From Nannocystis pusilla (GTDB lineage Bacteria; Myxococcota_A; Polyangia; Nannocystales; Nannocystaceae), in NCBI RefSeq assembly GCF_026626665.1, contig NZ_JAPNKE010000002.1:3437168-3501167 (forward strand): a stretch of DNA of 64,000 bases. Reading direction: 5' to 3'. The notes under the pieces are model-generated. The model searched no databases. It was not told the origin of the DNA and saw only the letters and a program-made list of their open reading frames with translations. Below are positions 6,083 to 56,125 of this stretch, piece by piece. The position numbers and the translations under genes were made by a program. Every line of letters starts with the position of its first letter. Within the stretch, counting starts at the first letter, position 1.

Positions 6083-8164
6083 ATGTTGTCCTGCTCTGGC
6101 CTGGTCTCGCGCGCGTACCTCACGGTCACGTGGCTCGCCCTCGCCGGCTGTTACAGCGGCTTCTCGGGCGCCATCCCTGACGAGCAGACGCCGCCGGAGC
6201 GCCCGCCCGTCAGCGAGGGCCCGCTGGGCGCCCCGCAGCTCTCACCGCTCGAGCTCGACGCCCTCTCGCCCGACCCTGCGCCTGGCGGCGTCGCCTTCGA
6301 CCTCCACGTCACCGGCGCCGGGTTCACGCGCTCCAGCGTCGTCGTCGTCGCCGGTCAAGAGCTGCCGACCACCTTCGTCTCGGGCGGCGAGTTGCACGCC
6401 CACAGCGGCCCGCGCAAGCGCGGCGACTACGAGGTGCTGGTCCGCCGCGACGACGAGGAGTCGCGCCAGCTGACCCTCGCCGTCGAGCGCTCGGCCCCGC
6501 GGATCCTCGTCCCCGCCGAGGTCGGGGTCGACGAGGACACCGAGGTCGGCCTCGTCGTCGACGTCGTCGACGTCGCCGATCCCGCGGCCCTGCGCGTCCA
6601 CGTGCTCGGCCTGCCGCCGGGCGCCACCTGGGACGAGCCGACCCGCACCTTCCGCTTCACCCCCGACTTCACCCAGGGCGGCGATCGCTGGACCGTCACG
6701 GTGCTCGCCCACGACCACGAGTCGCGCGTCGAGGCCACCTTCGACGTCGTCGTCCGCGACACCATCCAGCCGCCGTGGCCCGAGGTCGTCGACACCGAGT
6801 TCCTCGACGCCAGCGGATATGTCCGTTACCACCTGGCCCAAAAGACAGATGACTACCTCGACAGCCCGGGCTACGCCGGCCGCGAGTTCGTCGCCAAGGT
6901 CATGGTCCCGCTCGACGTCCCGCCAGAGGGCGTGCCGGTGCGGATCGGCCTGCACGGCTTCGCCACGGCCAACCCCGGCGGCACCGGCTCGGCCAACGAG
7001 ATCCGGATCTCCCCGCACGACCCCGACAACACCTACTGGTGGGGCTACGCCGATTCGCTGCCCGACGTCGAGCCCGCGGCCGGCGCGCGCGCCCGACTAC
7101 ACCATGCGCCGCGTGCTCCACCTCGTCGAGTACGTCGTGCGCCACCACCCGAGGCCGACCCGCAGCGCGTCTACGTCTACGGCAGCTCGATGGGCGGCGC
7201 CGGGGCGATGCTGCTCGGCCTCCTGCGCGGGCGTCACTTCGCGTACATCGACGCGCGCCTCGGTCAGGCGATCGCCCGCAACCACCGGCCGTCGCGGATC
7301 ACCCAGCTGTCCGGCTGGTGGGGCGCGCCGGAGCTCGACCTCGACGGCGGCGGCGGCCTGTCGGCGTGGGATCACATGGACCTGACGCGCGCCCTCGCCG
7401 ACTCGAGCGAGGCCCGCGACCAGTTCCTGTTCCTCAAGCACGGCAAGGACGACCCGACCATCCACTTCGGCGCCGCCGTCCTGCCGAGCCCGCGCACCGG
7501 CGAGAGCTTCTATCAGGCGCTGCAGAGCCGCGGCGTCGGCCACTTCGCCATCTGGGACGAGGGCGGCCACGGCGTCGCCGATCCTGTCCTCGGGGACAGC
7601 TGGTGGACCGGCTCGTGGGCGCCGATCAGCGGCGACGAGGCCACGCTGCGCCGCGACCGGGCGTTCCCCGCCTTCTCGTACTCCTCGCTCGACGACGACC
7701 CCGGCGTCGGCGTCGGCAACGGCAAGCAGGACTGGAGCGCCAACGCGGGCTTCGCCGGCGAGGTCGCCATCGCCGGCGACACCGGCTGGGACGGCGCCAT
7801 CGCCGGCGCGCTCGGCCGGTTCCTCCGCTGGGACGGCGCCTCGGTGGTCGACACCGTCGATCGCCTGCAATTCGCCCTGCGCGTCCACGCCGGCGACGGC
7901 GCCGACCCGCCCGCGCCCGGCTACCCGAGCGAGGGCGACCGGGTGATGGCCGAGCTGCCCGCGTTCGTCGACGTGACCCCGCGCCGCACCCAGGCCTTCC
8001 GCTGCCGCCCCGGCGAGCGCGTCGCCTGGTCGTTCGGCCAGGACCACGGCGAGGTGGTCGCCGGCCCCGACGGCAGCGTCACGATCCCCGCCCTGCCGCT
8101 GACCGACACCTGGACCACTCTGGTCCTGCGCCGCACGCTCACCGTGATCGCCGCCTCCCACTGA
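6083..8164 (+). CDS. lipoprotein with N-terminal Ig-like region and C-terminal alpha/beta-hydrolase (esterase/peptidase-like, GSSMGG nucleophile elbow); compensating frame excursion ~7085-7150
   Basis: The signal peptide plus lipobox is MLSCSGLVSRAYLTVTWLALAGC. GxSxG appears as YVYGSSMGGAGA. The expected segment PDYTMRRVLHLVEYVVRHHP is readable only in the frame of ORF 6819..7385. The ATG at 6083 was verified in sequence. Confidence 0.65.
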   Translation: MLSCSGLVSRAYLTVTWLALAGCYSGFSGAIPDEQTPPERPPVSEGPLGAPQLSPLELDALSPDPAPGGVAFDLHVTGAGFTRSSVVVVAGQELPTTFVSGGELHAHSGPRKRGDYEVLVRRDDEESRQLTLAVERSAPRILVPAEVGVDEDTEVGLVVDVVDVADPAALRVHVLGLPPGATWDEPTRTFRFTPDFTQGGDRWTVTVLAHDHESRVEATFDVVVRDTIQPPWPEVVDTEFLDASGYVRYHLAQKTDDYLDSPGYAGREFVAKVMVPLDVPPEGVPVRIGLHGFATANPGGTGSANEIRISPHDPDNTYWWGYADSLPDVEPAAGARARLHHAPRAPPRRVRRAPPPEADPQRVYVYGSSMGGAGAMLLGLLRGRHFAYIDARLGQAIARNHRPSRITQLSGWWGAPELDLDGGGGLSAWDHMDLTRALADSSEARDQFLFLKHGKDDPTIHFGAAVLPSPRTGESFYQALQSRGVGHFAIWDEGGHGVADPVLGDSWWTGSWAPISGDEATLRRDRAFPAFSYSSLDDDPGVGVGNGKQDWSANAGFAGEVAIAGDTGWDGAIAGALGRFLRWDGASVVDTVDRLQFALRVHAGDGADPPAPGYPSEGDRVMAELPAFVDVTPRRTQAFRCRPGERVAWSFGQDHGEVVAGPDGSVTIPALPLTDTWTTLVLRRTLTVIAASH

Positions 8165-8412
8165 CACCTGGCCCTCCGGCCATGTCCGTTCAGACATCCT
8201 TATTAGAGGGACATGCTTTAGCGAGCATGTTCTCCTCGGGTGGTCGCGGGCCCCGACGGCAGCGTCACGATCCCCGCCCTGCCGCTGACGACACCTGGAC
8301 CAATCTGGTCCTGCGCCGTACGCTCACGGCAATCGCCGCCTCGCACCAGACATGGCCCCCCGGCCATGTTCTTTCCGACCTTTTCAAAGGACATGCTCCT
8401 GCGAGCATGTTC
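8065..8412. repeat. tandem duplication (~170-bp unit x2) made of the last ~100 bp of the upstream gene plus a ~70-bp GGACATG-type palindromic element
   Basis: Copy 1 (8065-8232) includes the coding tail ...GPDGSVTIPALPLTDTWTTLVLRRTLTVIAASH* plus the element ...ggccatgtccgttcagacatcc...agggacatgctttagcgagcatgttctcctcg. Copy 2 (8237-8412) repeats both with ~90% identity. Confidence 0.8.
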
Positions 8413-8701
8413 TCCTCGACATGTTCTCGAGAGGCGTCGAATCGCGGCTCCGACCAGCGAGCGCCGGCGCACCGCTCGCCGGACCGTCGCGGCCAGGCTC
8501 AACCCTGTCGCCCGTAGCGCGCGTGCGGGGGCGTCGACCCCCGCGCGACCCGTCGACGCGCGGGCGCCTCGGCCCACGCGAGCGATTGCCTCCGTCGCTT
8601 GGGCCGCGAGCAGGGCTCACGAGCTCCGCGGATCTGGGTGATTGAGCGCGTTTGGCACCCGTCCCTCCGGCACCTCGACGAAGGCCGCTCGCTGCGGTTA
8701 G

Positions 8702-10320: not shown

Positions 10321-10365
10321 TCGAAGAGGACATGTCCGCAAGAACATGCCCTCTCGAACAGCCTG
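10321..10365. repeat. 14-bp-period GGACATGYCC repeat array (3 units) between convergent genes
   Basis: tcgaagaGGACATGTCC gcaa GAACATGCCC tctc GAACAGCC. Confidence 0.65.
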
Positions 10366-13311: not shown

Positions 13312-13854
13312 TCAGTGGAACTCCACCACGAGCCGGTTGGGGTCGCCGTCGTTCGTCACGTCGACGTAGTAGAGGTCGCCGGGCGCCATCACCCCGCCGA
13401 TCAGCACGCCGCGCTCGATCGTCTTGTCGAACGGCGTGGACGAGCGGATCACGGCGTGGCCGCGCTCCGAGTCGAACTCGGCGAGGTCGAACGAGCCGAC
13501 CACCTCGCGCGGCCCGCGGATGACGCTGGCGATGCCGTGGCTGCCGGTCTGAAAGTGCAGGAAGTCGGCGCCGCGGTGGATGAGCGCCTTGCCGGGGCCG
13601 TGGTGGTACCACAACGTCATCATCTCGATGCCGAGCTTGAGCCGGATCGGCTCGACGTTGGCGTACGACTCGCCGACCATCCGCTCGATCTCCATCCACT
13701 TCGACAGCGGGAACCACCGCCCCATGTCGATGTCGGCCAGCAGCGCGGTGGCCCGCCTGCCGGCGACGATGTTGAGGTTGACGCACGCCTGGGCGAAGCC
13801 GCCCATGAGCGCCCCGTGGACCACCGGCTCGCTCGGCTCGCTCTCGTCGCTCAT
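13312..13854 (-). CDS. hypothetical cytosolic protein (possible sensor or accessory component of the partner-switch operon)
   Basis: The ATG is preceded by a GGGGAGG SD and overlaps the upstream TGA. The 180-aa product (MSDESEPSEPVVHGALMGGFAQACVNL...) has no recognisable domain. Confidence 0.45.
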   Translation of the reverse strand: MSDESEPSEPVVHGALMGGFAQACVNLNIVAGRRATALLADIDMGRWFPLSKWMEIERMVGESYANVEPIRLKLGIEMMTLWYHHGPGKALIHRGADFLHFQTGSHGIASVIRGPREVVGSFDLAEFDSERGHAVIRSSTPFDKTIERGVLIGGVMAPGDLYYVDVTNDGDPNRLVVEFH

Positions 13855-14945
13855 CCCGCCTCCCCTGCGAACGCGAACACCGCGATGATCGGCACGCCGC
13901 GGTACGACAGGCGCACGAGCCCGGAGCTGACCGAGGAGCGGCAGTACTCGGGCAGGTCGACGTCGAGGTCGATCGCCGGGTACGGCACGAAGCCCGACTT
14001 CTTCAGCCGCAGCAGCCACGACTCGAGCGTCTCGTGGCGCTCGGTGCGGAAGGCGTCGCTGGTGCCGAGGATGTCGCGGACCTCGCGGCCGAAGAAGCCC
14101 TCCTTGATGGCGAACTTCTCGTCGGGGGACGCGTCGCTGCGGTCGACCAGATCGAACACCGTGGCGAAGTGCTGCCAACAGTGGTGCATGCGCCGGGTGA
14201 GGTGCTCGGTGTCGTGGTCCGAGCTCGGCTCCACCAGCGTGAACACCCGCGGCCGCAGGGCCCGCAGCCGCCGCAGCAGCCGGGTGCGCGCGTCGCTGTC
14301 GGGCCCCGTGGTGTGGTGCAGCGTGTAGGCCGCGTTGATCGACAAGCTCCCCTCGGCGAGCGCCTCGAAGTGCGCGTAGTCGGCATCCTCGCAGACCTCG
14401 ATCAGCTTGACCAGCGGATAGATCTCGATGTCGAACGGCAGCTCGGCGCGGACCTCGTCGATCGCGGCCACGCCCTCGTTCAGGGCGGTGCGGTTCGGCT
14501 CGAGCGCGATCACGCGGAGGCGCTCGATCTTGCCGGGGTCGCGCGCGAGCGCCCGCAGCAGCGCGACGATCTGCAGGCCCTTGCCGATCCCGATCTCGAG
14601 CAGCGCCGGCGTGCTCGACTGCCGCATCGCGTGCACGAGGTACTGGTTGGCCAGCGCGTAGCCCTGCGGCACCGCCGGGATCGCCCGCTGCAGCAGCGTG
14701 AACAGGTCGATCTGCGGCCGCTTCTCGGCTTGCAGGTACAAGTTCCGCCCCGACAGCAGGTTGCGGTCGATCCGTCGCAACAGCGACTCGGCGACGATGT
14801 GGGACAACAGCGCGTCGCTCGGGACATCGACGTCGAGGGCGTCGAGGAGCTGGCTCGCTATCACCGTCTTGGCGACCTGCTCGCGATGCCGGCGAATGTC
14901 CTGGCACGCGGCCAAAATCAGCTTGTAGCGGTCCTCGTAGAGCAT
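13851..14945 (-). CDS. bacterial GRAS-family protein (Rossmann methyltransferase-like fold)
   Basis: GRAS-like blocks are LLEIGIGKGLQIVALLRALA...LRVIALEPN and GSLSINAAYTLHHT. This is the first gene of the minus-strand operon. Confidence 0.5.
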   Translation of the reverse strand: MLYEDRYKLILAACQDIRRHREQVAKTVIASQLLDALDVDVPSDALLSHIVAESLLRRIDRNLLSGRNLYLQAEKRPQIDLFTLLQRAIPAVPQGYALANQYLVHAMRQSSTPALLEIGIGKGLQIVALLRALARDPGKIERLRVIALEPNRTALNEGVAAIDEVRAELPFDIEIYPLVKLIEVCEDADYAHFEALAEGSLSINAAYTLHHTTGPDSDARTRLLRRLRALRPRVFTLVEPSSDHDTEHLTRRMHHCWQHFATVFDLVDRSDASPDEKFAIKEGFFGREVRDILGTSDAFRTERHETLESWLLRLKKSGFVPYPAIDLDVDLPEYCRSSVSSGLVRLSYRGVPIIAVFAFAGEAG

Positions 14946-15218
14946 GCGCCGCAGACTGAAGGTCACACAGGGGATCCGCCTTGGCAAGCTGATGCGCACC
15001 CGATCGTGGCCGAGAAGATTATCTCAGCCCTCGCGCGGAAACGCGCCGCGTAGCCTGGCGCAGGCCCCGTCGGCCTCTGTCTCAAAGACCACCCAGCGGC
15101 GCTACCGGACCGCGGGCCACTGCGCAGGTCGCGTGTGCGACGGACTGCATCTTGAGACATGGTCCGAAAACCATGACGCGGCGCGGCGAGCCCGGCGAAA
15201 GTGGCCCGAAAGCAGGCC

Positions 15219-17156: not shown

Positions 17157-17900
17157 GTGAGCGGCCGGCGCTCGGACGGACCTGTCCCATCGGACACCCT
17201 CGCGGCCCTCGACCGCGCCCGCGACCAGGCCGGCCCGCACCTCTGGTTGGTCCCCGCCCCGCCCGCCGCCGGCGACGCCGACGAGGCCCTGCGCGAGCTC
17301 GACGAGCTGCTCGCCCGCGGCGAGTTCGACGAGCCCGCCGTCGCTCGCCTGGTGGCCCTGGCGCCGCGCGCCCCGGGCCGCCTGCGCGCCGTCGTGGCAG
17401 CCCTCGCGGCCGCGGGCAGCCCCGCCGCGGTGGCCGGCCTGCTCACCCTGCCGCAGGTCCCCGGCGCGCTCGAGGCGGCGGCCCGCGCCCTCGCTCGCGG
17501 CCTCACCCGCGCCCTGCCCGGCTCCGCTTCCGCGCCGGTGTTCTTCGCCCTCGACTTCCGCGGTTCGCGGGCGCGGCCGTTCCCCGACCTGCTGCGGCGC
17601 GCCCAGCTGGTCGCCGCCGATCCGAGCGGCGCCCTGCGCCTCGACGTCCTCCGCGTCGACGGCAAGCCCGCCTACCGCCTGTCCTTTTGGCCAGACACGA
17701 TCCCGCCGCGCGCCCGCGCCGAGCTCGCCCGCGCCTGCGCCGCCGACCTCGCGCTGCTCCACGGCCGCCTCGCGCGCCTCCGCGGCGCCCGCCTGTGGCT
17801 GAACGGCTTCTGCTTCCCGGACGACGGCCCGGTGTCGGTCGCCGCCCAGGGCCATCTGTTGGCCGCGTGGTTGACATGGTCCGAAGGACATGCCCCGTGA
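17157..17900 (+). CDS. hypothetical protein
   Basis: A 247-aa ORF in the same frame as the downstream AAA gene. It is separated from that gene only by a repeat element carrying two TGA codons. Confidence 0.4.
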   Translation: MSGRRSDGPVPSDTLAALDRARDQAGPHLWLVPAPPAAGDADEALRELDELLARGEFDEPAVARLVALAPRAPGRLRAVVAALAAAGSPAAVAGLLTLPQVPGALEAAARALARGLTRALPGSASAPVFFALDFRGSRARPFPDLLRRAQLVAADPSGALRLDVLRVDGKPAYRLSFWPDTIPPRARAELARACAADLALLHGRLARLRGARLWLNGFCFPDDGPVSVAAQGHLLAAWLTWSEGHAP

Positions 17901-17925
17901 GACATGACCTGAAGGACACCTCGTT
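17883..17925. repeat. 14-bp-period GGACATGCCC repeat array (3 units)
   Basis: ccGAAGGACATGCCC / cgtgAGACATGACC / tgaaGGACACCtcg. In the upstream ORF's frame it contains TGA at 17898-17900 and 17910-17912. Confidence 0.65.
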
Positions 17926-17939
17926 CGCGCGCGCGCCTC

Positions 17940-19391
17940 CGCCTGCGCGAGGCGCTGCAGGCCGGGGCGCGCGGCCTGGGCCTGCGCGCGGTCGACGAGG
18001 CGCGGGCGCTGCGGCTGTGCGAAGACGTCGGCGAGCGGCTCGACTGGCCCGTCCACACCTGGAGCGCGGCCGGCGGGCGCGACGGCCTCGGCGCCCCCGA
18101 GCCGCTGGCCGACCTCCTGCGCGGCCTCTTGCGCGACCCCGATCCCGGCTTGTGGGTGCTGCTCGATCCGCCCCCGCTCGAGCCCGTCGCCTTGCGGGCC
18201 CTCCGCGAGCTCGCGCAGCGCAGCGTCGGGCCCGCGGTCGTCGTCGTCGGCGACCTCGCGCCTGCGCTCGTCGCCATCCCCGAGCTCGAGCTGCTGGAGC
18301 TCGAGCTGCCCGACGCCGACGAGCTCACCGGCCTCGCCGCCGACCTCGTCGACGAGCTGCGGATCGCCGGCCGTCCCGGTCCTGCCGCCGCGCTCGCTCG
18401 CCGCGCCTCGCGGCTCGCCCACGCCGCGCTCGGCCTGTCCGAGCACCAGGCCCGTCGACTGCTGCGCCGCGCCGCCGACGTCCCCGCCGACGACGCCGCG
18501 CTCGCCGAGCTCGGCGCCGGCAAGGCCGAGCTGCTGCGCCGCGGCGGCCTGCTCGAGCGCGTCGAACCTGTCCCTTCCGACATGCTCGGCGGGCTCGCGC
18601 AGCTCAAGCAGTGGCTGGCCCGCCGCGCCCTCGCCCTCCGCCCCGAGGCCCGCGCCGCGGCGATCCCCGACCCGCGCGGCGTCCTGCTCGTCGGCGTGCA
18701 GGGCTGCGGCAAGAGCCTGGCGGCCCGCGTCTGCGCCCACGCGCTCGGCCTCGGCCTCCTGCGGCTGGAGCCGGGCCGGCTCTACGGCGGCACGCTGGGC
18801 GAGAGCGAGGCCAACCTGCGCCGCGTCACCGCGACGGTCGAGCGCATCGCTCCGGTCGTTTTGTGGATCGACGAGCTCGACAAGGGCCTGGCCGGCAGCG
18901 AGGGCCCGGCCAGCGACGCCGGCACCGCGGCGCGGGTGCTGGGCGGCCTGCTCACGTGGCTGCAGGAGCGCCGTCGTCCGGTGTTCGTGGTCGCCACCGC
19001 CAATCAGGTCACGCGTCTGCCGCCCGAGCTGACACGTCGCGGCCGTCTCGACGAGATCTTCTTCGTCGACCTGCCCGATGCGGACGAACGCGCTGCCATC
19101 GCGGAGATCCATCTCGAGCATGCGCCGCGCTCGCACATGGGCGCCGCCCCGGTCCTCGCTGATCCGTTGCCCGACCTCGTCGACCTCGTGCGCGCGGCCG
19201 ACGGACTCTCGGGCGCCGAGATCGAGGGCGCGATCGTGGAGGCTCGCCTCGACGCGTTCGCCGAGTCGCGACCGCTCGCGCGCGGCGACCTCGCTCGCGC
19301 GCTCGCCGCGACCATCCCGCTCAGTCGCAGTCGTGCCGGCGAAATCACGGCCCTGCGGGCGTGGGCGAGCGCTGCGGCCCGCAGGGCTTGA
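17940..19391 (+). CDS. AAA+ ATPase (single AAA module with ~250-aa N-terminal domain); start codon unresolved
   Basis: Walker A is LLVGVQGCGKSLAA and Walker B is VVLWIDELDK. The sensor/arginine-finger region reads VFVVATANQVTRLPPELTRRGRLDEIFFV. The open frame begins just after 17912, and the first ATG in frame is at 18129. Confidence 0.6.
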   Translation, partial: RLREALQAGARGLGLRAVDEARALRLCEDVGERLDWPVHTWSAAGGRDGLGAPEPLADLLRGLLRDPDPGLWVLLDPPPLEPVALRALRELAQRSVGPAVVVVGDLAPALVAIPELELLELELPDADELTGLAADLVDELRIAGRPGPAAALARRASRLAHAALGLSEHQARRLLRRAADVPADDAALAELGAGKAELLRRGGLLERVEPVPSDMLGGLAQLKQWLARRALALRPEARAAAIPDPRGVLLVGVQGCGKSLAARVCAHALGLGLLRLEPGRLYGGTLGESEANLRRVTATVERIAPVVLWIDELDKGLAGSEGPASDAGTAARVLGGLLTWLQERRRPVFVVATANQVTRLPPELTRRGRLDEIFFVDLPDADERAAIAEIHLEHAPRSHMGAAPVLADPLPDLVDLVRAADGLSGAEIEGAIVEARLDAFAESRPLARGDLARALAATIPLSRSRAGEITALRAWASAAARRA

Positions 19392-19670
19392 GGAACCTGT
19401 CTCTAAGTTCCAATGCGGCGCGTGACCTGCGGTCGCGCAATGTCTGCACAACCGCGCCAATCGCCCGAGGATGGCCGGCGAACGGCGGTTCGCACGGTGT
19501 GCTGTTGAACACAATTCAAGCGAGCACGATGTCGCGAGCGAACGTGACTCGCACCGCCAAACCTGCTGCGAGTCTTGTGGGAATTTTCGTGCTCACGTCC
19601 CACCCATCCTGCGAACTCCAGGTGCGTGACACTGCGATCACGGCTATGGGATACTGTACGAGCGCTCATT

Positions 19671-20402
19671 ATGACCGTGCAGCCGCCGATCACTCCCCTG
19701 TCTCAAGGAACAGGACCCGCGGACCAGCCCTCGTCGCCGGCGCGGGTCCTCCTCGTCGACGACCACCCGATCTTCCGCCTCGGCCTGTCGCAGCTCCTCG
19801 GAGCCGAGACCGACCTGGAGGTCGTCGGTGAGGCCGAGGACGCCGAAGCCGCCCTGGCGATCCTGCGCGAGAAGCCCGTCGACCTCGCGGTCGTCGACCT
19901 CTCGCTCAAGACCGGCAGCGGCATCGATCTGATCAAGCAGATCCGCGCCGCCTGGCCCGAGCTCAAGCTGCTGGTGCTGTCGATGCACGACGAGCAGTTG
20001 TTCGGCGAGCGGGTGCTGCGGGCCGGCGCCCACGGCTACCTGATGAAGCACGTGCCCGCCGAGCGGATCGTCGGCGCCATCCGCAAGTCGCTGAAGGGCG
20101 AGCTGGCGGTGAGCGAGCAGCTGGCCGAGACGATGCTGAACGCCATGGTCTCGCGCCCGCGGGCCGGCACCGGCATCGAGAACCTCAGCGACCGCGAGCT
20201 CGAGGTGTTCGAGCTGCTGGGCCGCGGGCACGACACCCGCAACATCGCCGAGTCGCTCAAGATCTCGATCAAGACCGTCGAGACCCACCAGTCCAACCTC
20301 AAGCTCAAGCTCGGGGCTCACAGCGCGCACCAGCTGCGCCGCCTCGCCGTCCTGTGGGCGACCGAGGGCCTCGCCGGCCAGCCCGCCGCCGGCCGTACCT
20401 GA
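19671..20402 (+). CDS. NarL/LuxR-family response regulator (REC + HTH_LuxR)
   Basis: The receiver domain reads VLLVDDHPIFRLGL...VDLAVVDLSLKTGSG (phospho-Asp context). The LuxR HTH reads LSDRELEVFELLGRGHDTRNIAESLKISIKTVETH. The ATG at 19671 was verified. No cognate kinase gene is adjacent. Confidence 0.85.
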   Translation: MTVQPPITPLSQGTGPADQPSSPARVLLVDDHPIFRLGLSQLLGAETDLEVVGEAEDAEAALAILREKPVDLAVVDLSLKTGSGIDLIKQIRAAWPELKLLVLSMHDEQLFGERVLRAGAHGYLMKHVPAERIVGAIRKSLKGELAVSEQLAETMLNAMVSRPRAGTGIENLSDRELEVFELLGRGHDTRNIAESLKISIKTVETHQSNLKLKLGAHSAHQLRRLAVLWATEGLAGQPAAGRT

Positions 20403-20630
20403 GCCGTCCTGCTCGCCCTGAGCGCGCTCCTGCACGGCCCCCGGCGCGCTCATCCGGCGAGAATTGCCAGGCCGGCCCGCTCGGGTCAGCCTCTGGCCGT
20501 GTCCCGCGCGCAACCTCGCCCAGCAGCAGCTCGAGCTGCCCGCGCTGGACGAGCCTGCCGGCGCCCCCGACCTGCCCGAGCCGACCCCCGCGGCCGCCTG
20601 CGCCCGCTGCGGCTGGCTGGTGCGCCGAGC

Positions 20631-20670
20631 CGAAGAGACATGTCCTTTGTGCCATGCCCCGAAGGACAGC
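20631..20670. repeat. 14-bp-period GGACATGYCC repeat array (3 units)
   Basis: cgaagaGACATGTCC tttg TGCCATGCCC cgaa GGACAGCAC. Confidence 0.6.
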
Positions 20671-20675
20671 ACGCC

Positions 20676-21080
20676 ATGAGCCGCTACGTCCGCCTCGACC
20701 TCGGCGCCCGCGAGCTCGCGCGGGCTGACCTGGAGGCCGCGCTGGCCGAGCTGGAGCTTCGCGCCGAGGTCGCGGAGATCCCCGGCGGCCTCATGCTCGA
20801 GGGCAACTTCGAGTGCGCCGGCGAGCCGGTCGACCTGCGCGTGCCCGCGGGCACGCTGGGGGCCGTCGCCGACTTCGGCCTGCGCGCGGCCGGCAGCACC
20901 TTCGTTTTGGTGTGCGGCGAGCACGATCGCGCCGTCCTGGCCGAGCGCCTGGTGGCCCCGCTCACCCGGGCGCTGGCGGCCGCCCGCGTGCGCGCCGCGG
21001 CGAGCGCCGCCGGCCTGGCCGTCGACACCACCCAGGCGGCCGACGGTACCCTGCGGCTGCGGGTCCGTCCCCCGGCGTAA
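20676..21080 (+). CDS. hypothetical protein
   Basis: A 134-aa ORF from an internal ATG (MSRYVRLDLGAREL...). No recognisable domain. Confidence 0.4.
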   Translation: MSRYVRLDLGARELARADLEAALAELELRAEVAEIPGGLMLEGNFECAGEPVDLRVPAGTLGAVADFGLRAAGSTFVLVCGEHDRAVLAERLVAPLTRALAAARVRAAASAAGLAVDTTQAADGTLRLRVRPPA

Positions 21081-21123
21081 CACTCGCTGGGGCCCCGCGT
21101 TGTCCGAGCCGGAAGGTCGAACG

Positions 21124-21846
21124 ATGTCCGCCTCTCGCCCGCTGCCTCCCGCCGTGTCCGCCGCCATGAGCCGGCGCGACTTCCTCGCCCGCGCCGCCAG
21201 CGGCACCGTCGTCGCCGCCATGGGCGGCGGCATGTTGTGGGTCCTCAACGACCGCCTCACGCGCGAGGCCAAGGCCATGACCCTCGCCGACGGCCGCCCG
21301 CGCCTCCCGCCCGGCCAGCGCGTGCTCGAGGCGCTGCGGCCCATGGGCGGCGTGCCCGGCTCGCCGAGCCCCGCCGACGTCAAGATCAAGGTCTACGGCG
21401 AGGTCGAGAGGCCGTTCGAGCTCGACTGGAACGGCCTGCTCGCCGAGCCGCAGACCGAGCTCGAGGCCGACGTCCACTGCGTCACCGGCTGGTCGCTGCT
21501 CGGCGCGGCGTGGAAGGGCGTGCGCGTCAGTCACCTGGCCGAAAAGGCAGGCCTGAAGAAGACCGCGCGCCACGTCGTGTTCGAGGGCGCCCACGGCTAC
21601 ACCGCCAACGTGCTGCTCGCCGAGGCGCTCGCGCCCGACGTCCTGGTCGCCCACCGCCACGCCGGCAAGCCGCTCGCGCGCCCGCACGGCAGCCCGGTGC
21701 GCGCCGTGGTGCCCGGCCTCTACTTCTGGAAGAGCACCAAGTGGCTGACCGGCATCAAGTTCGTCGCCCGCGACGAGCCCGGCTACTGGGAGACCCGCGG
21801 CTACAACAACCACGCCGACCCGTGGAAGGAAGAGCGCTATGCCTGA
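21124..21846 (+). CDS. sulfite-oxidase-family molybdopterin oxidoreductase (MsrP/YedY-like catalytic subunit) with Tat signal
   Basis: Twin-arginine motif MSRRDFLARAASGTVVAA. Mo-cofactor oxidoreductase segments are HCVTGWSLLGAAWKGVRV and GKPLARPHGSPVRAVVPGLYFWKSTKWLTGIKF. Confidence 0.75.
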   Translation: MSASRPLPPAVSAAMSRRDFLARAASGTVVAAMGGGMLWVLNDRLTREAKAMTLADGRPRLPPGQRVLEALRPMGGVPGSPSPADVKIKVYGEVERPFELDWNGLLAEPQTELEADVHCVTGWSLLGAAWKGVRVSHLAEKAGLKKTARHVVFEGAHGYTANVLLAEALAPDVLVAHRHAGKPLARPHGSPVRAVVPGLYFWKSTKWLTGIKFVARDEPGYWETRGYNNHADPWKEERYA

Positions 21847-22420
21847 GCCCGAGCGCCGGCGCCCGGTCCGCTGGCGGCCGTGGCTGCGCGCCCTCCACCG
21901 CGACATCGGCTACGTCGCCGTCGGCCTCACCTTCGTCTACGCGCTGTCGGGCCTCGCGGTCAATCACATCGCCGACTGGGACCCGAACTTCGACAACTAC
22001 GAGGCGCGCCACCAGGTCGCCGTGCCGCTGCCCGAGGACGACCGCGCCGCCGCCGACGAGGTCCTCGCCGAGCTCTCCATCCAAAATCCGCCGACCGAGG
22101 TCTACCGCAGCGACGCGCGCGAGCTGTCGATCCTCCTCGACGGCAGCACCCTCCACGTCGATCTCGACAGCGGCGTCGTCCTCGAGGACGGCCAGCGCCC
22201 GCGCCTGTTGCTGCGGGTCGCCAACTGGCTGCACCTGAACCGCGGCAAGAAGGCCTGGACCTACATCGCCGACGGCTACGCCGTGTTCCTGCTGTTCCTC
22301 GCCGCCTCGGGCCTGTTCATGCTGCCCGGCCGCAAGGGCCTGGTCGGCCGCGGCGGCGTGCTCGTGCTGCTCGGCGTCGCCGTCCCTGTGCTGTACGTGA
22401 CCCTGTCCGGCGGGCCATGA
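21839..22420 (+). CDS. PepSY-associated TM-helix family membrane protein
   Basis: The start overlaps the upstream stop (ATGCCTGA). TM helices flank a periplasmic segment. The motif WLHLNRGKKAWTYIADGYAVFLLFL is characteristic of PepSY_TM. Confidence 0.6.
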   Translation: MPEPERRRPVRWRPWLRALHRDIGYVAVGLTFVYALSGLAVNHIADWDPNFDNYEARHQVAVPLPEDDRAAADEVLAELSIQNPPTEVYRSDARELSILLDGSTLHVDLDSGVVLEDGQRPRLLLRVANWLHLNRGKKAWTYIADGYAVFLLFLAASGLFMLPGRKGLVGRGGVLVLLGVAVPVLYVTLSGGP

Positions 22421-22540
22421 CCCGAAGGACATGGCCGCTCAGACATGCCCGAAAAGGCATGCGCTGAATTCCAGGCACCGCGCCTCGACCGGTTCGGACA
22501 TGTGCGAAGGGGCATGCCCGAACGGACATGCCCCCGAAGT
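22421..22540. repeat. large 14-bp-period GGACATGYCC repeat array (two clusters, about 8 units)
   Basis: ccGAAGGACATGGCC gctc AGACATGCCC gaaa AGGCATGCGC ... ttcGGACATGTGC gaag GGGCATGCCC gaac GGACATGCCC ccgaag. It lies between convergent genes. Confidence 0.75.
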
Positions 22541-22571
22541 CACCCCGCACCGGCGGCGCCGCCGCCCTGCT

Positions 22572-23360
22572 CTACTGCAGCCGCTCGCGCAGGAACGACA
22601 GCGTGCGCTGCAGCGCCTGCTCGGTCGGGTGGCCGGTCTCGCGGACGAGGTCGACGGTCAGCACGCTGTGGGCCGACGGCTTGATCCCGTGGGCGTTGCC
22701 CGGGCCGGAGTCGATCTCGATCGCCTCGAAGCCCTCCTTGAGCTCGCGCTTCAGCGTCTCGAACCGCTCGCGCGGGACCTTGCCGTCGTGGGTGAAGCAC
22801 AGGCCGAGCACCTTGAGGCCCTCGTCCTTGACCCGCCGCTTGACCGTGGCGAGCTCGTCCGGCGCGATCGCCAGCTGCCCGCGGCGCGCCTTGCCCACCG
22901 GCAGCGGCAGCGCCGGCTGCGACATCACCGGCGCCATCAGCGACGGCTCGACCGCCATCGACAGCGCGAAGTTCCCCGTCAGGCACATGCCGATCGCGCC
23001 GACGCCCTTGCCGCCGAGCTCCTTGTGCAGCGCGCGAGCCAGGCCGCGCAGCCAGTTCGTGATCGGGCTCGACTCCTGGCCGGCGAGCAGCTTGAACTCT
23101 TTGCTGACGCACAGCTTGAGCATCGTGCTGGCGAGGTAGCCGCCGGACACCGGCTTCATCGGCTCGCCGAACAGGTCGGGCAAGACCACGGTGAAGCCCG
23201 CGTCCGCCACCAGGTTGGCGAACGCGACCACCGCCTCGTGGATGCCGGGGACCTCGGTGATGATGATGACCCCGGGGCCGCGCCCGCGCCGATAGACCGT
23301 CTTGGTGACGCCCTCGTGGGTGAACTCCGATGCGCTGTAGCCCTGGATCGACATCGCCAC
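22572..23360 (-). CDS. dienelactone hydrolase family protein
   Basis: A 262-aa alpha/beta hydrolase with Cys nucleophile context GAIGMCLTGNFAL and conserved HGIKPSAH. Confidence 0.7.
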   Translation of the reverse strand: MAMSIQGYSASEFTHEGVTKTVYRRGRGPGVIIITEVPGIHEAVVAFANLVADAGFTVVLPDLFGEPMKPVSGGYLASTMLKLCVSKEFKLLAGQESSPITNWLRGLARALHKELGGKGVGAIGMCLTGNFALSMAVEPSLMAPVMSQPALPLPVGKARRGQLAIAPDELATVKRRVKDEGLKVLGLCFTHDGKVPRERFETLKRELKEGFEAIEIDSGPGNAHGIKPSAHSVLTVDLVRETGHPTEQALQRTLSFLRERLQ

Positions 23361-23430
23361 GAGTGTATCAGCCTTCGGGCCGGGGCGAGCTTGTCAAATC
23401 GCGCAGAGGCGTGCGAGGCTCGGCGCCGCC

Positions 23431-23793
23431 GTGTCCTACGAGCTCTTCCTGGTCCTCCACATCTTCGGCATCGTCCTCCTCTTTATGGGCCTCGGCGGCC
23501 TCGCGTTCCACGGCATCGCCGGCGGCACTCGTGACACCAACCCCGCGCGCGGCCTGGTCGCTGCCACGCACGGCGTGGGAACGTTGCTCATCGTCGCGGC
23601 CGGCTTCGGCATGCTCGGGGTGAAGTACGGCGGCGCCATGCCTGGCTGGGTTCACCCCAAGTTGCTCGCGTGGATCTGCCTCGCGGCTGCCCCGGCGTTG
23701 GTCGCTCGCAAGCCCGGCGCCGGTCGCGTGCTGTGGTTCGTCGCGCCGCTGCTCGGCCTCCTCGCCGCGTACTTCGGCCTCAACCACAAGTAG
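23431..23793 (+). CDS. small integral membrane protein (4 TM, hypothetical)
   Basis: Hydrophobic helices LFLVLHIFGIVLLFMGLGGLAF, LLIVAAGFGMLGV, LLAWICLAAAPALV and LWFVAPLLGLLAAYFGL. Confidence 0.5.
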   Translation: MSYELFLVLHIFGIVLLFMGLGGLAFHGIAGGTRDTNPARGLVAATHGVGTLLIVAAGFGMLGVKYGGAMPGWVHPKLLAWICLAAAPALVARKPGAGRVLWFVAPLLGLLAAYFGLNHK

Positions 23794-23799
23794 CGCGCG

Positions 23800-25362
23800 C
23801 TAGAACCAGCGCGCTGCGTAGGCCTGAAGCACGTCGATGCGAGCCAGCGGCGCGCGCACGGCGATGTGCCCGTCGGGCCTGAGCAGCACGAGCTCAGGCG
23901 CGCGCACTCTCCACCCGCGGACCACGGCGCCCGAAGGATCGCCGAGAGTCTCGGCGTCGCCTGTACCCAGGACCAGGTCGCGAACCACCAGCGATCGGCC
24001 CCACTTCTCCGCCAGCTCCCGACCCGCGATCGCCAGCGCCTGCGAGCGCGCCGCTCCGTGCATGAGCAACAGGGTCATCTTCGCCTCGCTCGCCACCAGC
24101 ACGTGCAGCGACACCGTCGCCGCGCCCGCGCGCAGCATCGCCGCCGGCGCTCGATCACCGGCCCTCGGCGAGCGCCGCGGCCAGCTGCGGGCGTCGACCA
24201 CCGCCGGCGACTCGCGATACGACACGCCCGTCTGCGACATGCGTCGCGCCAACCGCTGCTGCAGCGCGCGTGATCGCAGCGCCGTGCCGACGATCAGCTT
24301 GCGCAGCATCATCGTCCGTCGGCTCGTCGCGCCGCGGAACAGGCGGTCCGTCATCTCGAGCGTGCGCCTCGCCACCGGCAATCGCTCCGCGTCGTACGTC
24401 GCCAGCAGCTCCGGCCGAGCCGCGCCGCGAGCCACCATCGCCAGCTTCCACGCCAGGTTGAAGGCGTCCTGGATCCCCGTGTTCATCCCCTGGCCGCCCG
24501 CCGGGCTGTGGATGTGCGCCGCGTCGCCGGCGAGGAACACCGAGCCCACGCCCATCTTCGGCACCATGCGGTGGTGCAGGCGGAACCGCAGGATCCACTC
24601 CGGGTCGTACAGCACCGCCCCGGGCACCAGCTCGTCGGCCAGCTTCTGAAACATCTCGAGCGTCGGCTCGGGCGCGTGACCGTCGCCCCCCATGGCGATG
24701 ATGCGATAGCGACCGCGCGGCAACGGAGCGAACACCACCAGCCCCGCGGGCCGCAAGAACCCGCAGCCGAGCCCTGGCGGGCGGTCCCAGCGGATCTTCA
24801 GATCTGCCTGATCGAACATGTCCTCATAGGCAGAACCTTCGAACGGCAGACCGAGGCCGTGGCGCACCGCGCTGTGGGAGCCGTCGCAGCCGACCAGCCA
24901 GCGCGCAGTCACCGACTCGGTGCAGCCGTCGTCGCCGCCGATCGTCGCCACCACCTGCGAGCCCTCGTCGCGGAACGACAGCAGACGCAGCCCGCGCTCG
25001 ACCGCCCCGCCGAGGTGTCGCAGGTGCTCGGCCAGGATCCGCTCCGTCGCGCTCTGATCGAGGAACACCGGCCGCGGCACGTCGGGCCCGAACCGCGCGA
25101 CGTCCAGCGTCCCCAGCAGCTGCTTTTCAAAGAACAGCTGCACCGCCATCAGCGCCTCGGCCTCGGCCTCGACCGCCGCGCGCAGCCCCATCGCCTCGAA
25201 CACCTCGCGCGTGCGCGCGTGGACGACCAGCGCCTTGGAGTGCTCGGTCGTGCGCGGCGCGGGATCGACCACCCGCACCGTCAGTCCGTACCGCCGCAGC
25301 TCGCACGCCATCGTCAGGCCCGTGGGCCCCGCTCCTGCCACCAACACATCGATCGACCCCAT
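23800..25362 (-). CDS. FAD-dependent aromatic-ring monooxygenase (PheA/TfdB/UbiH class)
   Basis: The N-terminal dinucleotide fold is IDVLVAGAGPTGLTMACEL. The DG motif and the GD motif FLAGDAAHIHSPAGGQGMNTGIQDAFNLAWKLA are present. The 520-aa ORF is intact. Confidence 0.85.
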   Translation of the reverse strand: MGSIDVLVAGAGPTGLTMACELRRYGLTVRVVDPAPRTTEHSKALVVHARTREVFEAMGLRAAVEAEAEALMAVQLFFEKQLLGTLDVARFGPDVPRPVFLDQSATERILAEHLRHLGGAVERGLRLLSFRDEGSQVVATIGGDDGCTESVTARWLVGCDGSHSAVRHGLGLPFEGSAYEDMFDQADLKIRWDRPPGLGCGFLRPAGLVVFAPLPRGRYRIIAMGGDGHAPEPTLEMFQKLADELVPGAVLYDPEWILRFRLHHRMVPKMGVGSVFLAGDAAHIHSPAGGQGMNTGIQDAFNLAWKLAMVARGAARPELLATYDAERLPVARRTLEMTDRLFRGATSRRTMMLRKLIVGTALRSRALQQRLARRMSQTGVSYRESPAVVDARSWPRRSPRAGDRAPAAMLRAGAATVSLHVLVASEAKMTLLLMHGAARSQALAIAGRELAEKWGRSLVVRDLVLGTGDAETLGDPSGAVVRGWRVRAPELVLLRPDGHIAVRAPLARIDVLQAYAARWF

Positions 25363-25371
25363 CGCTCCGCT

Positions 25372-25435
25372 CCTGCAAGTGAGTGCTCACTCACCGTGTC
25401 ACGGCTCCAGGACAGTTGCAAGTGAGTGCTCACTC
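25372..25435. promoter_or_regulatory. two copies of a 16-bp near-palindrome GTGAGTGCTCACTCAC (candidate TetR operators) in a divergent promoter region
   Basis: CAAGTGAGTGCTCACTCAC occurs twice about 43 bp apart, between the monooxygenase gene (minus) and the TetR gene (plus). Confidence 0.6.
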
Positions 25436-26078: not shown

Positions 26079-26081
26079 CCT

Positions 26082-26295
26082 GTCCCTTCGACCAGCCTCA
26101 CACGTACCCGGGACGACGCCTCACCTCGGCCATGTCCCTGAGGTCCTGTCCCTTCGACCAGCCTAACCTGCGCGCCCCCGACACGTGCGCCTCACCTCGG
26201 CCATGTCCCTGAGGTCCTGTCCTCGAGGTTCTGTCCTTTCGACCAGCCTCACCTGCGCGCCCCCGACACGTGCGCCCTGCCCATCGGCGTCGCGC
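26082..26295. repeat. about three tandem copies of a ~66-70-bp unit (CTGTCCCTTCGACCAGCCTCAC...CCTCACCTCGGCCATGTCCCTGAGGTC)
   Basis: The copies begin at about 26082, 26148 and 26231. Each contains GGCCATGTCCCTGAGGTCCTGTCC, which is related to the 14-bp family. Confidence 0.75.
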
Positions 26296-28111: not shown

Positions 28112-28200
28112 CCTCATATGTCCTTCAGGACATCTTCGGCAGCGCCTGTCCTTCCAGACAGCCCGCGGCAGTCGGCCTGCCGCGAGCGCCTCGACCTGTG
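28112..28200. repeat. palindromic element (GTCCTTCAGGAC; CTGTCCTTCCAGACAG) followed by a ~32-bp imperfect copy of the upstream gene's 3' end
   Basis: The gene tail is gccgcctgccgcgagctcctcgacctctga. The downstream copy is ggcctgccgcgagcgcctcgacctgtga. Confidence 0.7.
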
Positions 28201-28202
28201 AC

Positions 28203-29435
28203 TCACTCGTACGCCGTCACGTACATGTGATACGTCTCGAAGTCGACCGCGCCCGAGGCGAAGATCGTCCCCGCGTCGTCGATCGCCACGTCGACCTCCC
28301 ACGACCCGCTGTCGCAGCTGTGCACCGCCAGCGTCACGCCGGACGGGTCGAGCCGCGCCACCATCCCGCGGAACGGCGGCTCGTTGTTGTACTCGCCGCC
28401 GACCGCGATCTCACCGCTCGCGTTGACCGCGAGGTCGCCGAAGCCCCACATCCCCTCGACGAACGTGTCCCACAGCGGCGTCCCATCCGCCGCGAACTTC
28501 CCGATCTTCACCGCCGACGACCCGATCTCGGCCCCGACCACCACCGCGCCCGCGCCGTCGATCGCCGCGGTACTGAGCACCGAGAGCTCCCACGGGCGCG
28601 TCCACAGCTCCTCGCCGGACGGGTCGAACAACCGGACGCCCTCGTCCCACACCAGCGCCACCATCGCGCCCGCCGAGCCGATCGCCGCCACTTCGAGTTG
28701 CTCCGCGACCTCGAGGTCCCACAGCAGCGTCCCGTCGGCCGCGTGCTTGACCATCCGCGTCCCGTCGCCGACGGCGGCGCGGTCGCTGTACACCGTCGTC
28801 CCGTCGCCCGCGACCGCGATGTCGTAGCCCCACGCGTAGCCCTGATCGCGCGGCCCCAGGTCGCGCTCCCACAGCATCGCTCCGGCCGGGTCGAACTTGC
28901 GCAGCCACTTCCGCGGCGACACCCCGTCCTCGTCGCGGAACATCCCGTAGCCGTTGCCCTCGGCGTCGATGTCCCAGTGGACCGCCCCCGACGGGATCGG
29001 TGTCGTCGCCACCAGCGTCCCCGTCGCGTCGAACTCGCGCGACAGACCGTCGCTGAACACCCGCGCCCGCCCGTCGGCCGCGAGCGACACCTTGCCCGCG
29101 CCGCTCGTCTCCGGATCGACGAACAGCCACGCCCCGCCCTCGCACGCGAAGTCTTCCGGCGTCGAGCCCGAGTCGGTGTCGTGCATGCCCGTCGTCGTCT
29201 CGGTCGTCGCGTCGCCCGGTCCGTCGGTCGTCTCGTCCGGGCCGCCGGTCGTCTCCGCCGCGCTCGTCGTCCCCTCGCTGTCGCTCCCGCCGCCGGTCGT
29301 CCCCTCGCTGTCGCTCCCGCCCGTGGTCGTCCCCGTGCTGACGGTCCCGCCCGTGACCCCCGGGTCCTTCGGATCGCAACCTGTCACTACAGCCATGAAC
29401 CCAAGGACATGTCCAATATACCATGTTCTAATCAT
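28203..29435 (-). CDS. lipoprotein with Thr/Gly-rich linker and beta-propeller-like repeat domain
   Basis: Signal plus lipobox is MIRTWYIGHVLGFMAVVTGC. A GGAGAG SD lies upstream. Repeated motifs are WD/WE...DG...V. The ATG was verified (cat at 29433-29435). Confidence 0.6.
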   Translation of the reverse strand: MIRTWYIGHVLGFMAVVTGCDPKDPGVTGGTVSTGTTTGGSDSEGTTGGGSDSEGTTSAAETTGGPDETTDGPGDATTETTTGMHDTDSGSTPEDFACEGGAWLFVDPETSGAGKVSLAADGRARVFSDGLSREFDATGTLVATTPIPSGAVHWDIDAEGNGYGMFRDEDGVSPRKWLRKFDPAGAMLWERDLGPRDQGYAWGYDIAVAGDGTTVYSDRAAVGDGTRMVKHAADGTLLWDLEVAEQLEVAAIGSAGAMVALVWDEGVRLFDPSGEELWTRPWELSVLSTAAIDGAGAVVVGAEIGSSAVKIGKFAADGTPLWDTFVEGMWGFGDLAVNASGEIAVGGEYNNEPPFRGMVARLDPSGVTLAVHSCDSGSWEVDVAIDDAGTIFASGAVDFETYHMYVTAYE

Positions 29436-38286: not shown

Positions 38287-38340
38287 AGGACATGTCGCGG
38301 AGGACATGTCGGGACAGACATGTCCCTCAGGACCCGCGGT
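38283..38340. repeat. 14-bp-period GGACATGTCS repeat array (3-4 units)
   Basis: tGAAGGACATGTCG cgGAGGACATGTCG ggacAGACATGTCC ctcaGGAC. Confidence 0.7.
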
Positions 38341-39980: not shown

Positions 39981-40860
39981 GTGCCCAGCGGCGCGTCCCT
40001 CTCGCTCGCCCGGTCGCCGTCGTCGGCGCCGGGTTCCTCGGCGCCCCCGTGGCCGCCGCGCTCGCGGCGACCGGGGGCGTCGGCGATCCGCCTGTCCTTG
40101 CGACCACGCGCTCCGGGACATGGCCGCAAGGACATGTCCCGGAAGGCATCGAGCTCCGCCCGCTCGACGTCGCCGCACTCGCCCCGGCCGACATCGCCGC
40201 GGTCCTCGCCGGCGTGCAGTCGCTGGTCGTCTGCTACGCCCCCGGCAAGCAGCAGGACCGCCGCGAGCTCTACGTCGAGGGCACCCGGCGCCTGCTCGCC
40301 GCCGCGGTCACCCTCCCGCTCACCCGCCTCGTCTACACCTCGTCCACCTCGGCCCTGCCCGACCGCGACGCGTGGCTCGACGACGACTGCCGCGAGTGGC
40401 CCGACGAGCCGCGAGGTCGCGTGCAGCGCGAGGCCGAGGGCTGGTGCGAGACACCTGCACGCGCCACGCAGTGCCATGGACGATCCTCCGCCTCGGCGGC
40501 CTCTACGGTCCGGGTCGCGAGCTGTTCCGCCTCTACCGCGGCGCCGGCGACGACGCAGTCCTCGCGGGCGACGGCATGCAGCCGACCAACCTCATCCATT
40601 GCGAGGACGCAGTGCAGGCCGTCCTCGCCGCCTTGACCCTCGCGCCGGACGAGCGCGGCGTCATCAACGTCGTCGACGACGACCACACCCCGCGGCGCGA
40701 GATCTTCGCTCGCCTCGCCGCCCTCGCCGGGCGACCGCCCCCGCGGTGGGAGCGGCCCGCGGGTCCGGCCGCGATCGGCAAGCGGGTCGGCAACGCGCGC
40801 CTGAAGACGCTGCTGCGCGTGGCCCTCCGGCATCCCTCTCACACCCCGGCGAGCCCCTGA
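39981..40860 (+). CDS. NAD(P)-binding Rossmann-fold epimerase/oxidoreductase-like protein; start unresolved, frame break ~40445, contains an in-frame 3-unit 14-bp repeat
   Basis: GxGxxG reads VAVVGAGFLGAPVAAAL (40010-40060). Later sequence is CYAPGKQQ...LVYTSSTS. The C-terminal ~135 aa (HAVPWTILRLGGLYGPGRE...) are in another frame. Bases 40100-40141 (tccGGGACATGGCC gcaaGGACATGTCC cggaAGGCATCgag) encode ...SGTWPQGHVPEGIE... Confidence 0.5.
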
Positions 40861-43830: not shown

Positions 43831-44024
43831 CCTGAAACCAAAGAGAATACGCCCGAGGCGAAGCCCGCCCCTGAGCCGCGACCAAGCTCTATCTTCGGAG
43901 GCCAGCCAGGCTCGATTCATGCCCTGGGCCCCCGACCCTGGACCTCGCGCCCCATTCCGCGGCAAGCCCCCTCTGAGCCGAGACGCGCCCGACGCCTCCA
44001 CGCAAGGCCCCCTCCTCGGCCGCT

Positions 44025-44100
44025 GCCCGGCAAGCGCCCCTCGGCCCGCCTGCCCGGCAAGCGCCCCTCGGCCCGCCTGCCCGGCAAGCGCCCCTCGGCC
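44025..44100. repeat. 3 x 27-bp perfect tandem repeat (CCCGGCAAGCGCCCCTCGGCCCGCCTG)
   Basis: Seen directly in the ~420-bp region between the convergent lspA paralog and pabB-like genes. Confidence 0.85.
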
Positions 44101-44254
44101 CAAGCTTCTTGCGCGCTTCGTCGCAAAACCGGGTCAGCGGCCCAGAGGGCCCGCCTGCGCGACGCGATCAGGCTCCCGCGCTTCCTGGCGCGCCGTCGCC
44201 CGCGTTTTTCGCCCTGTCTTCCAAGCAGCTCACCGGGCTGCCGAAGCCTGCCGC

Positions 44255-54320: not shown

Positions 54321-54395
54321 GACTGTCCTGAGGGACATGTCCTCACGGGCATGTCCCTCGGCACCTGCTCCCGAGCACCTGCCCGAATAAACCTG
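54321..54395. repeat. 14-bp-period repeat array (5 units: ACATGTCC / GCATGTCCC / ACCTGCYCC)
   Basis: gactgtcctgaggg acatgtcctcacgg gcatgtccctcggc acctgctcccgagc acctgcccgaataa. Confidence 0.75.
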
Positions 54396-56113: not shown

Positions 56114-56125
56114 GCTGCAAGTCAG

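Follow-up and report, generated by a model that had tools for sequence, protein, structure and literature searches.

What is the run of short palindromes that lies between a PepSY_TM-like gene (21839–22420) and a convergent DLH gene (22572–23360, minus strand), and what might it do at the end of a gene? The initial annotation of the 64 kb stretch of DNA analysed here, which we refer to as the window, had described a pervasive REP- or MITE-like family built from 14 bp units, placed mostly after stop codons and able to fold into hairpins. We have considered in turn whether the repeat is real, how its unit is constructed, where the arrays sit, how they evolve and which of the known systems they resemble.

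Enrichment and register of the repeat

At this locus seven GGRCATGYCC-like cores are present with an exact 14 nt spacing, four in 22413–22464 and three in 22496–22533, the first core overlapping the TGA stop of the upstream gene. Array A (22399–22464) consists of four to five units, the first of which extend over the final codons of the PepSY_TM-like gene and its TGA stop, and it has orthologous arrays in N. punicea and N. pusilla. Array B (22496–22533) consists of three units, GGACATGTGC, GGGCATGCCC and GGACATGCCC, and lies 38 nt from the stop of the DLH gene. The arrays are given here without strand.

Ten exact copies of the core GGRCATGYCC lie in the window, nine of them in non-coding DNA; dinucleotide shuffles predict 0.28, and none of 100 shuffles reached ten. 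When up to one mismatch is allowed 44 cores are found (about 11 expected), with 28 in non-coding DNA, which makes up about 22% of the window. The periodicity is evident when no motif is assumed: there are 22 pairs of CATG at a distance of 14 compared with a mean of 0.83 at other distances, with eight pairs at 28 and nine at 42. An array finder, in which matches to a weight matrix trained on other genomes are chained in a 14 nt register, returned 20 arrays when run on the window; ten random windows gave none. Core enrichment, periodicity and array count thus agree that the family is pervasive across the window, as had been proposed. Restriction avoidance around CATG was considered and rejected; CATG is not depleted, with 235 copies counted and about 165 expected by our own composition estimate. 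CRISPR was likewise ruled out because the spacers are only 4 nt long.

Architecture of the unit

The grammar of the unit was derived from a pooled sample of 762 kb, comprising the window and 88 Nannocystis loci. The suggested motif scan with 14 nt periodicity found 235 arrays with 606 units in this sample and one array in Markov-random sequence. Arrays of two units are the most common (165), followed by those of three (28), four (21), five (18) and six (three). The unit logo is V-GGRCATGYCC-B, with CATG about 98% conserved and a symmetric flank rule, not T before GG and not A after CC. The 4 nt spacers lack a consensus and are enriched in A and T, and the register is rigid: 148 pairs of GRCATGYC sites are 14 nt apart, one is 13 nt apart and none is 15 nt apart. 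The initial description of the unit was four variable nucleotides plus a 10 nt core.

The unit can be resolved further into half-sites, GGRCA and TGYCC, which alternate in orientation with 0 and then 4 bp between them to give the 14 bp period. TGYCC-N4-GGRCA is found 318 times against three in random sequence (N3, 11; N5, three) and GGRCA-N0-TGYCC 302 times against four; half-site spacings other than 0 and 4 bp are at background level. Exact cores are rarely solitary, 283 of 298 having a neighbour at ±14 and 15 being single, compared with about five by chance. There are in addition 93 isolated TGYCC-N4-GGRCA units, in which the base just outside each half-site is C in 62% and A in 30%, independently on the two sides, and for which the stems are just 5–6 bp long with no flank covariation. 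In Nannocystis sp. RBIL2 (L006, 1340–1630) each copy of a tandem repeat of about 97 bp carries one isolated CCTGTCC-CGAA-GGACAG unit, so the 14 bp half-site pair also travels inside larger repeats.

The rigid 0/4 bp spacing of the half-sites points to recognition by a putative sequence-specific protein, a possibility that the initial annotation did not raise. Conservation of CATG at 98% and the rigid N4 loop exceed the needs of hairpin stability, and a near-invariant CATG combined with a spacer of fixed length and free sequence suggests that such a protein recognizes the units as well.

Position relative to genes

With genes called by a rough home-made codon-bias caller, which can be trusted for stops but not for starts or for some of the CDS and divergent assignments, 120 arrays were placed in convergent intergenic DNA (19.7 kb searched), 67 in tandem intergenic DNA (58.6 kb), six in divergent intergenic DNA (25.2 kb) and 33 in CDS (642 kb). 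The original assignment of copies to sites just past stop codons or between convergent genes is borne out by these counts. Pooled, 202 of the 235 arrays are outside CDS calls and, with about 20 arrays in 64 kb, the description as a dispersed extragenic palindromic, REP-like family is appropriate. Array starts in convergent regions are a median of 11–13 nt from a stop, while those in tandem regions are a median of 27 nt past the upstream stop and 201 nt before the next start. With the ascertainment regions set aside, an array is present in about half of the convergent regions of more than 30 bp and in 7% of the divergent ones. The genes on either side of arrays have unrelated housekeeping functions (dienelactone hydrolase, DUF218, adenylate cyclase, epimerase and cobalamin adenosyltransferase), and no transposase was seen among them.

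Within the window, a four-unit array at 1337–1388 begins 6 nt past the stop at 1330, a three-unit array at 38288–38325 lies 1 nt past the stop at 38286 and a two-unit hairpin with a 13 bp stem at 54333–54356 lies 15 nt past the stop at 54317. Another two-unit hairpin (10328–10351) is located between convergent genes with stops at 10320 and 10378, and the three to four units at 17872–17909 overlap the stop at 17898–17900. A two-unit array at 8209–8232 is found 44 nt past the stop at 8164, and two plus three units follow at 8348–8426 within a 185 bp tandem duplication of the gene 3′ end and its array; the duplication, in 8120–8430, copies the last 45 nt or so of the upstream gene plus its array. 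The units at 26128–26236 are embedded in a higher-order 71/85 bp tandem repeat (26079–26276), past the stop at 26078, with three copies that each hold two to three 14 bp units alongside about 35 nt that belong to no unit; in N. pusilla the repeat is shorter by one copy. A degenerate array with TGTCC-N4-GGACA units occupies 28114–28163, between convergent genes with stops at 28111 and 28203, and here N. pusilla is about 200 nt longer, with further units.

The loci listed initially from 1331, 8166/8346, 10321, 17883, 22421, 26082, 28112 (degenerate), 38283 and 54321 are accordingly confirmed, and those from 5858, 9712, 58335 and 61095 are weak or degenerate and fall below our detection thresholds. 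Arrays beyond that list start at 29405, 40116 and 61790, together with matches in CDS at 11230, 18564 and 51092. The two-unit hairpin at 40116–40139 has complementary flanks that give a 14 bp stem with a GCAA loop, and the two-unit array at 61790–61813 lies between two minus-strand genes. The two units at 29405–29428, at a gene 5′ end or in a divergent region, are an exception to the 3′-end rule. They occur in an AT-rich stretch that is 96% conserved in N. pusilla, and one CATG may contain the start codon of a minus-strand gene.

Two of the proposed members do not belong to the family. The motif is present at 20631–20670, where it had been counted as a locus, but it lies inside a conserved small CxxC...CxxC open reading frame and is therefore coding; the look-alike itself spans 20636–20659 on the plus strand. 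This zinc-ribbon-like frame (20499–20679), the stop of which overlaps the ATG of the next gene (ATGA, 20676–20679), has a 3′ end that mimics a three-unit array and that has diverged in the manner of coding sequence across N. punicea, N. pusilla and two metagenomic relatives. The CACCTGNCCC array at 56.1–56.5 kb, thought to be built from related motifs, was excluded from the 14 bp family. It is a separate 186–192 bp tandem duplication (56100–56520) outside the 14 bp register, with five CCGCACCTGSCCC motifs at a spacing of 52–70 nt, and represents a different repeat. The window also contains a 27 bp tandem repeat (44014–44101; 3.3 copies, 96% matching, TRF score 162) near a signal peptidase II-like open reading frame. 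The N. pusilla orthologue of the minus-strand gene at 13851–14966 has a match to the Pfam GRAS domain (PF03514), which is of plant type and uncommon in bacteria.

Folding and covariation

On either strand, adjacent units are predicted to form hairpins of 10–14 bp capped by a tetraloop (z-scores of −3.2 to −6.1), in agreement with the folding first suggested for neighbouring units. The palindromic nature of the core means that inverted and direct arrangements can be distinguished only at positions 3 and 8, where inverted pairs number 72 and direct pairs 48. Between neighbouring units these positions change together in the way that base pairing would require (odds ratio 1.7–2.1, p = 0.02–0.002). 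A same-position correlation between adjacent units is absent, so the covariation is not a duplication artefact. At these two positions about 40–50% of adjacent pairs are mismatched. In two-unit arrays the non-conserved flanks contain 237 complementary pairs, compared with 179 ± 12 after permutation (z = 4.8). For 148 two-unit arrays the covariation score is 0.184 against 0.137 ± 0.007 and double-sided changes number 234 against 154 ± 13, with none of 500 shuffles as high in either case.

The excess of G·U over A·C on the sense strand is not significant (79 versus 63, p = 0.2). Among the tetraloop classes there is no preference for GNRA, which equals its reverse complement, or for UNCG, which is rare, and so neither comparison shows selection specifically at the RNA level.

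The arrays have the GC-rich hairpin of an intrinsic terminator and lack the U-tract directly after the stem: a tract of at least five T in 8 nt follows none of the 67 tandem arrays and is found at seven of 240 convergent flanks. Canonical terminator-like sites between 10 and 30 kb of the window number four, against 4.2 in shuffles. The statement that U-tract terminators are scarce is supported to the extent that they do not exceed the chance expectation over the 20 kb covered by the scan.

Distribution and novelty

Two adjacent units were used as a pattern to scan one genome per species across 185 579 species. At least 101 matching stretches were found, and 88 of the 101 matches listed are from Nannocystis, including N. 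exedens, N. punicea, N. bainbridge, N. radixulma, strain RBIL2 and metagenome-assembled genomes. The other 13 listed are single matches in unrelated taxa, which by our own arithmetic is roughly the chance level for such a pattern in 596 Gb, and viral contigs gave only four unrelated singleton matches. Judged by the matches listed, the family is genus-specific to Nannocystis.

No match to Rfam 15 was obtained in the window at the gathering score, and at E ≤ 1 the flagged locus gave only sub-threshold noise. In the searchable literature there is no paper tying Nannocystis or Myxococcota to REP/RAYT or to these repeats, and GGACATGTCC appears only as a p53 half-site, with no bacterial use of the motif. 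The earlier remark that no myxobacterial family with this sequence has been described holds for both Rfam and the searchable literature. The repeat is apparently an undescribed and architecturally unusual relative of the known extragenic palindromic repeats.

Evolution of the arrays

The window derives from a myxobacterium of the genus Nannocystis. It is about 91% identical in nucleotide sequence to N. punicea over 17393–25373 and most similar to N. pusilla, at 94–96% identity over 20.5 kb (11854–32354). In ten orthologous locus pairs of 84–96% nucleotide identity, all 17 arrays checked occur at the same site in both species. Cores are 87% identical between orthologues and spacers 49%, compared with 78% for other intergenic DNA and 85.5% for third codon positions. 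The gap fraction in spacers is 4% against 16% in other intergenic DNA; the spacers have thus diverged with few indels, indicating that their sequence is free and their length constrained.

Arrays differ between species by whole 14 bp units. The flagged locus has seven units in the window, five in N. pusilla and six in N. punicea, and the locus at 17.9 kb has four in the window and six in N. punicea. Six indels of at least 10 bp separate the window from N. pusilla, and five of them fall in array-bearing spacers. Presence/absence polymorphism among related genomes had been proposed as a check; the number of units varies, and no clean presence/absence insertion was seen in the ten orthologous pairs. 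The MITE label is not appropriate for arrays of two to nine units that change by whole units and have no defined length, terminal inverted repeat (TIR) or target-site duplication (TSD).

Syntenic outgroups, in which the PepSY_TM-like protein is 76–79% identical, have the same convergent gene pair with a junction of 4–15 bp, and within 12–20 kb they contain no arrays and no CATG pairs at a distance of 14. No TSD is visible when the array junctions are compared with these outgroups. A contig at 82% identity carries a two-unit array. In a metagenome contig at 84% protein identity (L106, 10589–10620) the orthologous junction is occupied by three non-palindromic units that are nearly identical, GGCCATGAAC, and that keep the 14 nt period and CATG but lack the symmetry of the arms. 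The last six codons of the PepSY_TM-like gene (22399–22420) show four synonymous changes relative to the outgroups, all four toward the repeat consensus and register, and one of the four, a rare CCA codon, creates a CATG. Anecdotal as it is, this suggests that the arrays have 'spread' into adjacent sequence or have been selected to do so.

A proposed gene-end hairpin element

Position, obligate pairing, complementarity and the lack of other terminators combine to make a REP-like gene-end hairpin the best reading. We propose, with confidence that is evenly divided, that the arrays, a Nannocystis-specific REP-like extragenic palindromic family, may act as a bidirectional transcript-end hairpin element. 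Arrays were inserted or grew at gene 3′ ends within the Nannocystis lineage, and they persist at orthologous sites with whole units gained or lost via slippage or recombination. On transcription from either strand, adjacent units could fold into GC-rich hairpins of 10–14 bp with tetraloops and no U-tract, which would stop 3′→5′ exonucleases and, in combination with factor-dependent (Rho-type) termination, limit read-through, in the manner of REP/BIME elements in E. coli. A putative sequence-specific protein, perhaps a RAYT-like mobilizer, a host factor, an RNA or hairpin binder or a dimeric binder of double-stranded DNA, might recognize the units. The sequence itself shows the grammar and placement of the arrays, their capacity to fold, their covariation, their confinement to one genus and how they evolve; that they act at transcript ends and are bound by a protein is what we infer. 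The mRNA-stabilizer or terminator role assigned in the initial annotation was a suggestion made from position only. Several observations count against a transcript-end role, namely the lack of a significant G·U/A·C bias and of a GNRA or UNCG loop preference, the mismatches at positions 3/8, the conservation of CATG and the rigid N4 loop beyond the needs of a hairpin, the 93 isolated units and the L106 variant.

The closest concept is that of the REP/REPIN elements of Enterobacteria and Pseudomonas (PMC3337134). REP, BIME and REPIN elements resemble the Nannocystis arrays in being high-copy extragenic imperfect palindromes of about 25–35 nt, in being placed past stop codons and between convergent genes, often in clusters, in being able to fold as single-stranded DNA or RNA, and in their vertical inheritance at orthologous sites within a lineage. 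The arrays share the high-copy extragenic habit and the hairpin-forming palindrome but, unlike REPs, have no conserved asymmetric GTAG-like head and no defined linker motifs, and they change by 14 bp units. The 10 bp core is self-complementary and is arranged head to tail at exactly 14 bp, with the consequence that direct and inverted repeats coincide and any neighbours can pair.

For the mechanism there is a precedent in the U-less protective stem-loops at Rho-dependent 3′ ends in E. coli (PMC6061677). These are also stable GC-rich hairpins situated shortly past the stop codon with no U-tract, and they offer a plausible mechanism for such a role. The E. coli stem-loops are diverse in sequence, whereas Nannocystis would have one conserved sequence with a rigid periodic grammar at what we extrapolate to be thousands of sites.

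Other systems share single features. The mycobacterial TRIT or 'I-shaped' terminators are sequence-conserved gene-end hairpins of a GC-rich genus, but each is a single longer hairpin rather than a periodic array. Cyanobacterial HIP1 is a lineage-specific short palindrome of very high copy number; it is dispersed in coding DNA and has no tandem register, unlike the arrays.

Alternative explanations

The arrays could instead act on double-stranded DNA, the 14 bp TGYCC-N4-GGRCA being an operator-like site for a dimeric protein of helix–turn–helix type and abutting sites loading a protein filament that terminates transcription as a roadblock, delimits supercoils or domains, or organizes the nucleoid. 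We consider this possible but unlikely. It accounts well for the all-or-none half-site spacing (N4, 318 versus three; N0, 302 versus four in random sequence), for spacers that are free in sequence (49% identity) and fixed in length (4% versus 16% gaps), for the complete strand symmetry and for the 93 isolated 14 bp units, in which the extended half-site (C/A)TGTCC varies independently on each side. The 5-N4-5 geometry would also fit the operators of FNR- and PadR-type proteins. Dimeric regulators of the FNR/CRP or PadR type bind 5-N4-5 palindromic operators with conserved half-sites and a spacer of free sequence and fixed length, as in TGYCC-N4-GGRCA, but such operators are few per genome and belong to promoters; they do not abut one another in arrays past genes. 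Half-sites and flanks would not be expected to covary at a homodimer site, yet covariation is seen, and the tight polarity toward the upstream stop in tandem regions is more natural for an element linked to the transcript. No candidate protein has emerged, and no bacterium is known to us to carry operator arrays at gene ends by the thousand. More specifically, and somewhat more doubtfully, the arrays may be landing pads for a dedicated Nannocystis protein that dimerizes on TGYCC-N4-GGRCA and polymerizes over abutting sites. Several thousand gene ends, especially convergent ones, would then be protein-mediated transcription boundaries or supercoil barriers, making up a genome-wide, sequence-coded gene-end system that has no described bacterial counterpart.

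The arrays might also be selfish REPIN-like elements, spread by a RAYT or another HUH enzyme acting on single-stranded DNA hairpins and without a host function, their location at gene ends reflecting only where insertions are tolerated. This strikes us as improbable, although the high copy number, the genus restriction and the extragenic palindromes would all be expected, the palindrome is hierarchical (a palindromic unit within inverted pairs) as in REP/REPIN (PMC3337134), the arrays look like insertions relative to the outgroups and a subset has long perfect stems that suggest a recent origin. Set against these points are the retention of position by 17 of 17 arrays in the ten orthologous pairs with no clean presence/absence insertion, the absence of a conserved asymmetric head such as GTAG, and the conservation of cores while spacers randomize, which indicates purifying selection or homogenization rather than decay. 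Neutral tolerance alone would, moreover, not favour sites 6–30 nt past stops over those elsewhere in long tandem spacers. No homologue of RayT was detected when the E. coli protein was compared by tblastn with 869 kb of Nannocystis DNA, a low-power search that covers less than 2% of the genomes (best E-value 0.64). An analogue of the DNA uptake sequences of Neisseria (DUS) or Haemophilus (USS), preferred by a competence receptor, enriched via transformation and with inverted pairs doubling as terminators, is very improbable. DUS and USS are genus-specific 10–12-mers that a protein recognizes, and their inverted pairs lie downstream of genes, as in Neisseria; the motif observed here is likewise genus-specific and has inverted pairs past gene ends. 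They are, however, mostly single and are abundant inside genes, whereas the Nannocystis units are almost never single (15 single motifs against about five in random sequence, near the chance level), are nearly confined to intergenic DNA with little or no excess in coding DNA, and follow a strict 14 bp tandem register that uptake leaves unaccounted for. The probability that a 72% GC genome has produced the pattern through composition or chance is negligible; the high GC content and nothing more speaks for it, the shuffle and Markov controls give close to zero arrays and the syntenic outgroups of equal GC content have none. The uptake and chance explanations are effectively excluded.

Significance

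The self-similar 0/4 bp grammar of the arrays differs from that of classical REPs and suggests a putative sequence-specific factor. By extrapolation from the window, Nannocystis genomes, the large assemblies of which measure 11.3–13.2 Mb, would contain a few thousand copies of this one gene-end signal. The arrays are natural hotspots of structural variation, useful in strain typing and relevant to assembly errors. They would provide a sequence-defined handle on transcript ends in a very GC-rich myxobacterium, and may assist the annotation of operons and 3′-UTRs in a genus that is mined for natural products.
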